Shown: positions 44,951 through 50,545, numbered from the stretch's first letter. The stretch is DNA of 64,000 nucleotides from Acidobacteriota bacterium (GCA_040005235.1 JBDTZG010000027.1:1-64000); one strand, 5' to 3'. Translations and numbers: made by a program. Notes: generated from the sequence alone by a model not told the origin.

Positions 44951-44979
44951 TTGACCAAAGGTGGACGAGGGTCTACGAT
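44951..44979 (+). promoter_or_regulatory. sigma70-type promoter of carH-like gene with TnnAC repeats
   Basis: TTGACC-17-TACGAT; TTGAC/TGGAC/TCTAC at 11 and 10 bp spacing. Confidence 0.6.
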
Positions 44980-44987
44980 CCACCGCT

Positions 44988-45950
44988 ATGGCGGACATCC
45001 CATTCGACCTGGCCCGGCACCCCATCGGCGTGGTGGTCCGCAGGACCGGACTCAAACCGGACCTGATCCGCGCCTGGGAACGGCGCTACGCGGCGGTCGA
45101 GCCTTCGCGCTCCGCGACCGGGCGCCGCCTCTACTCCGACCTCGACATCGAGCGGCTGGTCCTTTTGCGTCAGGCGGTTCAGGCAGGTCGCGGGATCAGT
45201 CACGCCGCGGCTCTCGACAAAGAGCAGCTGCGCACTTTGATTCGAGAGGATCGACCGAACCCGGGTCCCGCCCGCCTTCCCCCCGCCGACCTCTGGAACG
45301 GCCAGGTCACGGCGGAGGCGGTCCTCGCCTCATGCATTTCCGCGGTCGAGCGCCTGGACGTGATCGAGCTGGAGTTGCAGCTCGAAAGGGCGGCGGTGGC
45401 GCTCTCCCAGATCCACATGATCGAGAGGGTGCTGGTGCCCATGATGCACTCGATCGGCGACCTCTGGCAGCAGGGCACCTTGCGCCCCTCCCACGAGCAC
45501 ATGGCCTCCGCGGTGATCCGCTCGTTCTTGGGCGAGATGCGCAGCGCCTACCAGCCGCCGAGCCAGGCGCCGCATCTGATCGTCACCACCCCGGCCCGCC
45601 AGCACCACGAGCTGGGGGCGTTGATCGCCGCGGCGACCGCCGCCACCGAAGGGTGGAGCATCGTTTACCTCGGCCCCGACCTGCCGCCGGAGGACATCGC
45701 AGCTGCCGCCCACCAGCGGGGGGCGAAGGCGGTAGCTTTGAGCATCACGTTTCCGCCCGACGACTCTCGCCTCGCCGACGATCTGCGCCGCTTGCGGCGC
45801 ATGCTGGACCCGCGAATCCAGGTGGTCGTAGGAGGGCGCTCGGCGGGACACTATGAGCCCGTGCTCAAGGAGATCGGTGCCCATTCCGTGGCCGATCTGA
45901 CGGAGTTCCGGCGCGCCTTGGCCAAGCTGCGCGTTCCGTCCTCTGTCTGA
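44988..45950 (+). CDS. MerR-family B12-binding photoregulator (CarH/LitR-like)
   Basis: IRAWERRY...R.YS..DI.RL MerR HTH; W-x9-EH (WQQGTLRPSHEH); HELG; YLGPDLP. Confidence 0.9.
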   Translation: MADIPFDLARHPIGVVVRRTGLKPDLIRAWERRYAAVEPSRSATGRRLYSDLDIERLVLLRQAVQAGRGISHAAALDKEQLRTLIREDRPNPGPARLPPADLWNGQVTAEAVLASCISAVERLDVIELELQLERAAVALSQIHMIERVLVPMMHSIGDLWQQGTLRPSHEHMASAVIRSFLGEMRSAYQPPSQAPHLIVTTPARQHHELGALIAAATAATEGWSIVYLGPDLPPEDIAAAAHQRGAKAVALSITFPPDDSRLADDLRRLRRMLDPRIQVVVGGRSAGHYEPVLKEIGAHSVADLTEFRRALAKLRVPSSV

Positions 45951-47404: not shown

Positions 47405-48586
47405 CTAGCAGGGTTCTGCGAAAGACCCCCGCTTCCCGCCGGCTTGCGCCAACAAGGCGACGGTCTCGGTGAAATTTCCGACCACTTCGCAGCATTCATC
47501 GAACAACCAAGTAGAAACGCCCGCGGCCTCGCGAGCCCGGATCGCCACGGACCTTTCGGGCAACGGCAGGCGGAGCTGCGCCGGGCGTTCGGACGGTTCT
47601 CGGTCGGCTTTGGTGTCGAGCACTCCGGCCTGCCATCCCCGTTCACCGAGGAACCGGGCGAGCGCCGCCGAATAGCCATGGGTCGCGAGAACGCGTTCGG
47701 CACCGCTCTCTTCGATCGTCTTCAGCAGATCCCCCCAGCCGGCGTGATCGGAAACGACGAAGCCTCGGTCGAAGCTCGAACGGCGCACCCGGTCGGGCAG
47801 GAGCATCCAGCCCGAGGCGAATGCGGTCTTCGCGCGACCGAACCGGCGCATCCAAAGCGAGCCGAAAGCCGCGGGCGGAGCGACGATCAGATCGCCCGCG
47901 AACGAGCCGCGGCTTTGCGGATCGATCCGCCGCGTGGCCGGCAGAACGACGCCCGCGCGGAGGTAGATCTCGTTGATCGCCTCGATCGCTCCATGGGTCC
48001 GAATCGTTCGTCCCGCGACGTGCGGCAGCAGCTCGGCGAGCAGCCGCTGCGCTTTGCCGAGCGAATAGGCGCAGAGCACCGAAGCGCGCCCCGCCGCCGT
48101 ATTTTCCCGCCACCAATCGGCGATCTCGGCAGCCACCGTCGAGGTCTCCTCCCAGCGGTAGATGGGCAGAGCGAAGGTCGCCTCGGTGATGAAGGTATGG
48201 CAGCGGACCGGCTCGAACGGCGCACAGGTAGGGTCGGCCTGGCGCTTGTAGTCGCCTGATACGACCCAAACCTCGCCGCGGTGCTCGATCCGCACCTGCG
48301 CCGAGCCGAGCACGTGCCCGGCGGGATGAAACGACACGTCCACCTCGCCGATCCGCCGCTTCTCTCCGTACGGCATCGCTTCGATTCGCGCCTTCGGCAG
48401 GCGGTGCTCCAAGACGCCAAGCCCGGGGGAGGCGGCCAAGTACCCCGCCGATCCCGAACGGGCATGGTCGCCGTGAGCATGGGTGAGCACCGCCCGCTCG
48501 ACCGGCCGCCAAGGATCGATCCAGAAACCGCCTTCGGCGCAATAGAGGCCGCGACCGTCGAGCGCCAGGAGCGGAGCGCGGATCAG
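47405..48586 (-). CDS. ligase-associated DNA damage response exonuclease (MBL/beta-CASP)
   Basis: GLYC...F.IDPWRPV.RAVLTHAHGDHAR, PAGHVLGSAQ, SGDYK, ITEATFALP, YSLGKAQR, SDHA; homology extends up to a CTG at 48586. Confidence 0.88.
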   Translation of the reverse strand: MIRAPLLALDGRGLYCAEGGFWIDPWRPVERAVLTHAHGDHARSGSAGYLAASPGLGVLEHRLPKARIEAMPYGEKRRIGEVDVSFHPAGHVLGSAQVRIEHRGEVWVVSGDYKRQADPTCAPFEPVRCHTFITEATFALPIYRWEETSTVAAEIADWWRENTAAGRASVLCAYSLGKAQRLLAELLPHVAGRTIRTHGAIEAINEIYLRAGVVLPATRRIDPQSRGSFAGDLIVAPPAAFGSLWMRRFGRAKTAFASGWMLLPDRVRRSSFDRGFVVSDHAGWGDLLKTIEESGAERVLATHGYSAALARFLGERGWQAGVLDTKADREPSERPAQLRLPLPERSVAIRAREAAGVSTWLFDECCEVVGNFTETVALLAQAGGKRGSFAEPC

Positions 48587-49790: not shown

Positions 49791-49825
49791 CCGAGCGTTT
49801 GAGGTCGCAAATTGCGACCTCAAAC
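49791..49825. repeat. 35-bp direct repeat, left copy, containing a 29-bp palindrome
   Basis: CCGAGC-GTTTGAGGTCGCAA-A-TTGCGACCTCAAAC. Confidence 0.95.
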
Positions 49826-49916
49826 ACGGGGCGCGGCGGCATTCTCAAACTCGTTTCCCGGAATCATCGAGAAGTTGACCCCCCTTTTACGTCTTAGCTG
49901 GCAAAGGAGAAAGTAC

Positions 49917-50468
49917 ATGGCGAAAAAACCAGCCACCACCGCCCAGCTACGTAAAGCCACCCAAGCCGTCGAGAGCGCAATCATCGTCCTCAGGGGAGAG
50001 CGAGTCCTGCTCGACTCCGACCTTGCCGAGATCTACGGCGTTCCGACCAAGCGACTCAACGAACAGGTGAAACGGAATCGCCGCCGGTTCCCTGCCGATT
50101 TCGCGTTTCAACTGAGCGCGCCGGAGACCGACGGTTTGAGGTCGCAAATTGCGACCTCAAACGCGGGGCGCGGCGGTCGCCGCACGCGGCCCTTCGCGTT
50201 TACCGAGCACGGCGCAATTATGGCGGCCAACGTCCTCAGCTCGCCTCGGGCGATCGCCGCGAGCGTTCTCGTGGTCCGAGCCTTTGTTCGAATGAGACAG
50301 GCACTGGCGCCTCATGGGGAGATCGCCCGCAAGCTGGAAGATCTGGAACGGCGAACGGACGAGCGGTTTCACGAAGTCTTCGCCGCAATTCGAGCTTTGA
50401 TGTCCTTGCCGGCTGCTTCGCGTCGGCGCCGCATCGGCTTCTCGGTTGCTGAAAAAGCTGGCCCGTGA
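49917..50468 (+). CDS. ORF6N-domain DNA-binding protein
   Basis: AAGGAG RBS, ATG at 49917; RG.RV.LD.DLA..YGV.TK.LNEQVKRN..RFP.DF.FQL...LRSQIATS..GRGGRR..P.AFTEHG. Confidence 0.92.
   Translation: MAKKPATTAQLRKATQAVESAIIVLRGERVLLDSDLAEIYGVPTKRLNEQVKRNRRRFPADFAFQLSAPETDGLRSQIATSNAGRGGRRTRPFAFTEHGAIMAANVLSSPRAIAASVLVVRAFVRMRQALAPHGEIARKLEDLERRTDERFHEVFAAIRALMSLPAASRRRRIGFSVAEKAGP
50134..50162. repeat. 29-bp palindrome inside the ORF6N coding sequence
   Basis: GTTTGAGGTCGCAAATTGCGACCTCAAAC encodes LRSQIATSN. Confidence 0.95.
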
Positions 50469-50486
50469 GACTTGAATCTGGGGTCG

Positions 50487-50521
50487 CCGAGCGTTTGAGG
50501 TCGCAAATTGCGACCTCAAAC
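50487..50521. repeat. 35-bp direct repeat, right copy, containing a 29-bp palindrome
   Basis: Identical to 49791-49825. Confidence 0.95.
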
Positions 50522-50545
50522 GTCCGGGCTCGCCAACGGCGGGAA

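Follow-up and report, generated by a model that had tools for sequence, protein, structure and literature searches.

The chromosomal ORF6N gene considered here lies in a 64,000-nucleotide stretch of DNA from an Acidobacteriota bacterium (GCA_040005235.1, JBDTZG010000027.1:1-64000; hereafter the window) and is accompanied by a perfect palindrome of its own—written once in frame into the coding sequence (copy B) and repeated identically upstream of the gene (copy A) and just past its stop codon (copy C). Across the ORF6N family, the internal palindrome is maintained as DNA, and its variable bases track residues 45, 46, 49 and 50 of the encoded protein. This tracking, together with the compensated symmetry of the palindrome, makes it probable that the ORF6N protein recognises this site, presumably in the form of a symmetric dimer. 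We consider it fairly probable that gene and sites form a self-contained, autoregulatory module, in which the suggested binding, dimer state, repression and looping are deduced from sequence comparison. The elements of the locus are the following.

49791..49825, no strand assigned: copy A, a 35-bp direct repeat consisting of CCGAGC and the palindrome at 49797-49825
49826..49839, no strand assigned: 14-nt extension of copy A, matching the coding sequence past copy B at 13/14 positions
49917..50468, plus strand: ORF6N gene, 183 aa plus stop, Pfam PF10543
50046..50075, plus strand: predicted recognition helix, residues 44-53 (KRLNEQVKRN), from an AlphaFold2 model and covariation
50134..50162, plus strand: copy B, the in-frame palindrome encoding LRSQIATSN (residues 74-82), a family-wide intragenic site
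50487..50521, no strand assigned: copy C, the second 35-bp direct repeat, with the palindrome at 50493-50521

The palindrome—GTTTGAGGTCGCAA-A-TTGCGACCTCAAAC, 29 nt in length—occurs in three exact copies at 49797-49825, 50134-50162 and 50493-50521, with spacings of 337 (A to B) and 359 (B to C). An earlier note, made from the sequence of the window, had described this arrangement, and its particulars are found again: the middle copy encodes residues 74-82 of the open reading frame (ORF) 49917-50468, its minus strand translates to LRSQFATSN, and both outer copies are preceded by CCGAGC, which makes them perfect 35-bp direct repeats (49791-49825 and 50487-50521). Also the continuation of the left copy into sequence like that of the coding copy holds, over 14 bases with one mismatch, and might be the trace of a conversion from, or a duplication of, copy B. 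Copy A is a candidate upstream operator located between the divergent genes dinB and ORF6N; from its centre to the ORF6N start codon there are 106 nt, and from its edge to the ATG 91 nt. Copy C is located between ORF6N and the convergent fumC, with its centre 41 nt past the stop codon of ORF6N.

A set of 100 dinucleotide shuffles gave 0 matches to the 29-nt palindrome. In the genome that the window comes from (G000; 6,224,448 bases in 140 contigs), the window's three copies are the only ones, even when up to 7 substitutions are allowed, and a single 14-nt arm at up to 1 mismatch is likewise restricted to them. Hence, the palindrome belongs to the ORF6N gene, which is in turn the sole PF10543 match of this genome. 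A genome-wide REP-like element, which the earlier note had named as an outcome that would speak against its proposal, is thereby excluded. REP/REPIN sequences are scattered in tens to hundreds of copies and flank a RAYT gene, which encodes a Y1 transposase. The present locus likewise has short palindromic repeats on either side of a single-copy gene, but its copies number three in total, and the flanked gene has ORF6N as its only Pfam family, with no transposase domain.

An artefact of assembly, the other danger that had been pointed out, is unlikely as far as contigs show. Logan contigs of two runs, possibly those of the source samples, break at the 35-mer, and one contig of 721 nt spans A, B and C; a contig of a third run, from a relative of ~95% identity, carries A and B; and two further assemblies (G002 and G007) hold three palindrome copies each. 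This check was made on Logan contigs, which hide rare excised or inverted forms. In run X1, the gene-bearing contig (49796-50516) has a depth of 11.2 against 15.4 and 15.7 for its flanks; in run X2, the values are 9.8 against 9.6 and 8.3. It is possible that the X1 population is mixed with a solo allele, i.e., one palindrome without the gene, but these contig depths are not interpretable and cannot show it. In assembly G003, two contig ends (L006:1-130 on contig C81 and L129:1-130 on contig C75) consist of an error-ridden palindrome region; therefore, this assembly breaks at copy C.

The internal palindrome was followed through a family set that combines the window gene with 9 genes of genomes in its own bacterial family and with 80 genome-contig loci. 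Five of these 90 genes were dropped for short open frames, leaving 85; one of them (L107) has no palindrome at the position of copy B and was left out of later counts, which gives an alignment of 84 rows. Where copy B stands in the reading frame, 78/85 genes from many phyla have 10 or more complementary pairs among the 11 of the arms; in the same genes, 2/900 control windows reach this value. Over the 84 aligned sites, 95.4% of the cells are paired, in slid controls 23-44%. Compensating double changes are present in 9 of 12 arm pairs, and the number of doubly changed cells (147) is far above that in shuffles (36.5), none of 500 shuffles being as high. These compensating changes alter the protein: RSQ.ATS, RSQ.VTS, RSQ.VIS, RFQ.GTS, RYQ.GTS, RCQ.GTS and RLQ.ATS are among the variants, and the SQ[I/F]xTS motif, which the earlier note had named, is real in the family alignment. 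In five genes, this DNA core is translated in a frame shifted by one base, which yields VV[TA][ND]CDH. It is therefore the DNA, not the peptide, that is conserved.

Synonymous resampling with the codon usage of each gene leads to the same picture. Here, 4.67 pairs are expected and 10.41 are observed, with p<=0.05 in 78/79 genes and p=0.0005 for the window gene, an excess over synonymous shuffles for which the earlier note had suggested a test. On viral contigs, 29/35 distinct ORF6N genes carry the internal palindrome. The family offers a clear case of a DNA-level constraint that dictates protein sequence—even with the same core in two frames—and literature searches, with supplements outside their scope, found no description of a palindrome in ORF6N-type genes among the papers listed.

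Which bases the palindrome carries is coupled to a short segment of the protein outside of it. Mutual information, calculated with the palindrome-encoded residues excluded, ranks residues 49, 46 and 50 as the most informative columns for site positions +/-5 and +/-4, and residue 45 for positions +/-8 and +/-7. The core CG goes with R46 and E49 in 40/40 genes, the core CA with Q49 in 29/30 and the core TG with R-Q-Q in 4/4; the outer GG goes with K45 in 42/43 genes and the outer GA with R45 in 11/14. The window protein bears K45, R46, E49 and Q50 and its sites read GG-T-CG-CAA, in agreement with this family code. When the tree is calculated with the helix and palindrome columns left out, at least 30 changes of core class are counted on it. 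Well-supported branches provide 6 independent pairs that differ in core class; E49 goes along with CG in 5.9 of them and against it in 0 (median p 0.03 in a sign test).

In an AlphaFold2 model of the protein (mean pLDDT 80), helices 33-40 and 44-53, with pLDDT of about 96, follow each other in a helix-turn-helix arrangement, and residues 45, 46, 49 and 50 lie on one face of helix 44-53. The residues that the palindrome encodes (74-82) comprise the last part of helix 68-77 and a loop modelled with low confidence, where a sequence imposed by the DNA might be tolerated. Two long helices follow (110-146 and 149-162), and the model displays no effector or catalytic domain beyond the DNA-binding domain. 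Fold comparison gave matches in a middling range throughout (Z 3.4-6.3). The best rows, at Z 6.1-6.3, include the baculovirus Orf22 N-domain and Dachshund/Ski; Mbp1 (1bm8_A), which has the APSES/KilA-N fold, aligns over 85 residues with Z 4.5 and rmsd 3.9; and the pSK1 Par centromere-binding domain, RacA and MerR-type domains are among the others. A sequence search of solved structures yielded coiled-coil noise only.

Copies also occur beside the gene. With a family-level site definition, the flanks of the 84 loci contain 42 further sites, compared with 0.1 expected in shuffled flanks. Upstream sites are found at 28/84 loci (33 sites, 23 of them no more than 130 nt from the first matched codon) and downstream sites at 9/84, five of them at 11-41 nt past the stop codon. 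Both flanks are rarely occupied (5/84 loci), namely, in the window, its G002 orthologue, two paralogous modules of G021 and one locus with distant, unlike sites (L055). The earlier note had put forward homologues with neither palindromic coding nor flanking copies as evidence against it; the internal palindrome in 78/85 genes, upstream sites at 28/84 loci and both-flank sites at 5/84 point the other way. Its expectation that flanking copies covary with the internal one stood in part: a flank site shares the core class of its own internal site in 24/42 cases, against 15.3 by permutation (29/2000 permutations as high), but many flank sites are non-cognate. In the window, all three sites are identical, and the window adds a lineage whose site is triplicated around the gene.

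Among congeners, the flanking palindromes stand out from their surroundings. The palindrome of copy A is conserved at 27-29/29 positions among G000, G002 and G007, and its 40-nt flanks are 50-82% identical; the palindrome of copy C is 29/29 identical in G007 and 25/29 in G002. Taken together, A and C are conserved at 25-29/29 positions versus 50-82% for the adjoining 40 nt. The copy C of G002 has one arm pair broken and its centre base flipped. In the copy A of G007, both arms have changed together (GATTGAGG..CCTCAATC)—symmetry is, thus, kept in non-coding DNA. To the right of copy A, the sequence is similar to the right flank of B in G000 and G003 but to that of C in G007; such patchy extra identity suggests, at the level of sequence, conversion among the copies.

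Some loci show further arrangements. In one both-flank module (L145, sites at 422, 815 and 1224), a compensated change, TTTGCGG..CCGCAAA, is common to the two flanking sites and absent from the internal one; flank copies can, therefore, evolve together and apart from the coding copy. Some metagenome ORF6N loci bear arrays of 3-5 palindromes with mixed core classes, which are located upstream of the gene in L214:41-251 and L216:99-170 and in tandem within the coding sequence in L172 (reverse strand, 737-815). These mixed arrays look as if sites for several sister proteins had been collected.

At the chromosomal site between dinB and fumC, the gene is a polymorphic element. Besides the window, it is present in G002, G003 and G007. 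G004 has one perfect palindrome and no gene at this site—the single-copy allele for which the earlier note had suggested to search—and no PF10543 match at all at 98% completeness; in G001, G005 and G006, neither gene nor palindrome is found. A solo form is likewise seen in a 620-nt metagenome contig of a relative with ~95% identity, in which copy C directly follows the sequence that stands to the left of A. The solo alleles of G004 and of this contig lie exactly at the repeat: the 35-bp flanking direct repeats mark a gain/loss polymorphism. Recombination between A and C would leave one palindrome and is the simplest cause of the solos, the direction of loss being our deduction; insertion into a pre-existing palindrome is a possible alternative origin of the module at this site.

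Compared with the empty allele of G006, the insert reaches ~35 nt to the left of A and 28 nt to the right of C. In another genome (G011), there is a solo palindrome of the CG class, and its ORF6N genes are all of other classes. This solo adjoins the orthologue (73% aa identity) of the left neighbour of one G021 module, but its right flank is not orthologous, and the locus was rejected as a clean empty site of that module. The lack of a cognate ORF6N gene in both G004 and G011 is what a deletion scar predicts. The exact 29-mer was further found at 80 metagenome loci, of which 58 have it inside an ORF6N gene, 3 have the both-flank layout (one resembles G007 itself) and 8 have no ORF6N within 800 nt. 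Two metagenome contigs with a solo exact 29-mer and no ORF6N within 800 nt (L184:794-822 and L205:549-577) have flanks of 77-87% identity; a solo site can, therefore, persist across related organisms. A dif/Xer element was considered and ruled out: a dif-like site at up to 2 mismatches gave no match in the congeners G001, G005 and G006 (97, 85 and 93% complete), and the palindrome has a centre of 1-3 nt, compared with the 6-bp central region of dif.

Autoregulation of the module, possibly with looping, is the reading that we regard as most likely. In this reading, a small winged-helix-type protein would recognise the 25-29-bp palindrome, presumably as a symmetric dimer, through helix 44-53 with K45, R46, E49 and Q50. 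It would meet three identical cognate sites, upstream of the gene (A), in its coding sequence (B) and just past its stop (C), and could repress its own expression with no dependence on a host promoter: on A by sitting near the promoter, on B as an intragenic roadblock. The long C-terminal helices might allow for bridging of A, B and C in the manner of lac O3, O1 and O2. Recombination of A with C would delete the gene precisely, with one palindrome left behind, and the proneness of the gene to precise loss is then most likely a side effect of its flanking direct repeats. The comparative evidence on solo sites points to flanking copies as a route to such loss, which aids the reading of orphan palindromes elsewhere. 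Among the options of the earlier note, it is the regulator with its dimer site in its own ORF and copied around it that the compensated palindrome and the helix covariation favour. The further control of the dinB operon that had been envisaged is not needed, since congeners without the ORF6N gene have the same dinB.

The closest regulatory parallel is the lac operon, with operators O3, O1 and O2 and looping by LacI; the OE and OI operators of gal are comparable. Common to these systems are three cognate palindromic operators per repressor—one of them intragenic and a few hundred bp from the main one—and spacings of the same order as the 337 and 359 bp found here; all three sites of the window fit the helix-to-base code, and one is intragenic. 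On the other side, the intragenic site of the window lies within the regulator's own gene, at one codon position across phyla, and dictates part of the protein, and binding, oligomer state and looping are here presumed. Binding sites embedded in the gene of their own DNA-binding protein are also found as parS inside parB/spo0J and as the lambda ori iterons inside gene O. These sites, however, serve segregation or replication and have further copies on the replicon, whereas the sites described here are at the gene only.

Several observations weigh against autoregulation through the palindromes. Its basis lies in sequence and a structural model; for the latter, matches to DNA-binding domains are middling (best Z 6.3), and Foldseek gave no match at E<=0.001. 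Since the 84 genes are related to each other, the raw counts of residues against bases come out inflated, and the test that uses independent pairs has 6 of them only. Template-switch mutation in hairpin-forming DNA can produce compensating changes without selection; it does not explain the helix covariation. A simple sigma-70 scan saw no promoter-like site to which copy A could be related. The flank sites covary with the internal site only in part, and simple autoregulation does not fit every locus because many flank sites are non-cognate. Finally, a tree of the single gene fumC from 11 genomes does not settle the order of states within the genus, i.e., whether absence of the module is a loss or ancestral.

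The same binding step could serve another purpose. In a defence module similar to BstA/aba, the ORF6N protein would be an anti-phage effector acting on replicating foreign DNA, and the palindromes would be cognate "self" elements that restrain it or exempt their own replicon, with the flanking copies strengthening this effect. Such a role is compatible with all evidence in our analysis, and we nevertheless hold it to be rather unlikely. The product matches three profiles of PDC-S05, a candidate single-gene defence family of PADLOC (PDLC04869, E 5.9e-47; PDLC04856, E 6.8e-44; PDLC04849, E 2.1e-33). It has no other cognate site in the genome and would, thus, be a protein without a regulon, and the frequency of the internal palindrome on viral contigs (29/35 distinct genes) also fits. 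In E. coli B, T7 and T5 plated ~1000-fold less in the presence of a PDC-S05 representative, according to a preprint (bioRxiv 10.1101/2024.09.26.614923). However, membership of the window protein is by profile only, and the tested protein is described there as a form with a Virulence_RhuM domain—probably a longer relative and not the 183-aa form.

BstA itself is described by Owen et al. 2021 (PMC8585504) as a prophage-borne abortive-infection protein with two predicted domains, the N-terminal one of KilA-N type; its suppressing element aba comprises 63 bp at the start of the gene. The likeness lies in this domain and in a cognate element that overlaps its own gene, in pairs that are homologue-specific, and copy B shares with aba its location and cognate pairing only. 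By contrast, aba depends on terminal direct CCCGCC repeats and is no palindrome (PMC8585504), and the window gene is a chromosomal one of 183 aa, which stands among housekeeping types in the 16 neighbouring ORFs within ~12 kb and is not prophage-encoded by that measure. No phage or defence gene is found among these 16 neighbours, and no effector domain is seen in the model past the DNA-binding domain and the long helices.

Mobility is a further option. Here, the palindromes would be recombination sites of a minimal 696-bp cassette that is excised or moved by the ORF6N protein or a host enzyme, and the solos would be its empty targets. The alleles with gene, solo palindrome and neither at one chromosomal site within a genus invite this view, as do the solo in the ~95% identical metagenome relative, the G011 solo next to the orthologue of the left neighbour of a G021 module and the 8/80 exact-29-mer metagenome loci without ORF6N within 800 nt. 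The GC content at third codon positions (GC3) of the gene is also below that of its neighbours (0.69 vs 0.84 for dinB and 0.79 for fumC), and its best relatives belong to other phyla. Nevertheless, each genome has a single copy, G000 offers no free target site, no integrase or transposase is found among the 16 neighbours scanned—as the earlier note had stated—and the model contains no catalytic domain. The both-flank layout is rare (5/84 loci, 0/35 viral genes and 3/80 metagenome loci), the ends of the insert relative to G006 do not, by our reading of the sequences, coincide with the palindromes, and plain recombination between the 35-bp direct repeats explains the solos, with the solo genomes G004 and G011 lacking a cognate ORF6N gene as a deletion scar predicts. 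From the cassette option of the earlier note, the direct repeats that mark a presence/absence polymorphism with solos remain; the genome has no second copy, free target or recombinase that would point to movement, and active mobility seems improbable to us.

It could also be the RNA that matters: the copies would fold in transcripts into stabilising or terminating stem-loops, with the coding copy as a translational or RNase signal. Each copy does fold to a stem of 13-15 bp with z-scores of -3.3 to -5.8, and copy C has a terminator-like place between two convergent genes. But no T-run follows C on either strand, and neither the terminator scan, which reported none of the three copies, nor Rfam, in which no family came near threshold for the locus, adds to this. 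Sense-strand mismatches in the alignment show no G-U enrichment (G/T and T/G 11, A/C and C/A 23); therefore, an mRNA hairpin is not what is kept. Conserved sequence blocks lie between copy A and the ATG, with A upstream of them, and the covariation with residues 45, 46, 49 and 50 would be left unexplained. Hairpins in RNA are, hence, a very improbable function. Least credible of all is an inversion or gene-conversion device, in which the 3' or 5' half of the gene would be inverted by recombination of its self-complementary copies, as an off-switch or for an alternative C-terminus. In 4/5 loci, a B-C inversion would leave the frame open as far as the distant palindrome, asymmetric centres occur in both orientations within one locus (GAT/ATC in L018, GTT/AAC in L013) and the patchy flank identity fits conversion, which is part of this proposal of the earlier note. 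The open antisense frame, however, is the fully complementary one, which is open whenever TTA, CTA and TCA codons are absent; it is open in 19/27 GC-rich family genes with or without a downstream copy, and this base rate led us to reject the alternative C-terminus. An A-B inversion leaves an open frame in 1/5 loci, and no strand-changing joint was reported at the copies in contigs, which hide rare forms.

If the ORF6N protein binds its palindrome as proposed, each ORF6N gene carries its own target, and the family would represent a very large natural data set. A simple amino-acid-to-base code (K/R45, R/V/A46, E/Q/K49) could then be read from each gene, which would open a direct test of specificity for a DNA-binding fold that is widespread, associated with phages and poorly understood. 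Beyond this, it is a speculative thought, and on balance an unlikely one, that such genes are portable units of a gene plus its own address. The coding palindrome would then be an inseparable tag of cognate identity that controls or exempts a BstA-like anti-phage protein; copies on both flanks would allow for precise loss of the cassette and perhaps its regain at a solo site, and lineage-specific helix-to-base specificity would prevent cross-talk between sisters.

The ORF6N product matches PF10543 over residues 21-106 with E 6.2e-31 and 107 bits (gathering cut-off 27.8). Among other profile collections, "anti-repressor" families of PHROGs are matched (phrog_4792 with E 4.3e-18), and no NCBIfam model is matched. 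Searches in contigs of one genome per species place its best relatives, 44-61% identical, in many phyla. The gene is neighboured by dinB and a ligase-associated exonuclease on the divergent side and by the convergent fumC; a transporter, a hydrolase and glycosyltransferases are also among its neighbours. The exonuclease (ORF 47405-48490, minus strand), directly downstream of dinB, matches TIGR04122, the ligase-associated DNA damage response exonuclease, with E 3.5e-119 and has no match in Pfam. Another ORF on the plus strand (44961-45950) combines a MerR-type helix-turn-helix with B12-binding domains and is by this domain make-up a CarH-like light- or B12-responsive regulator.

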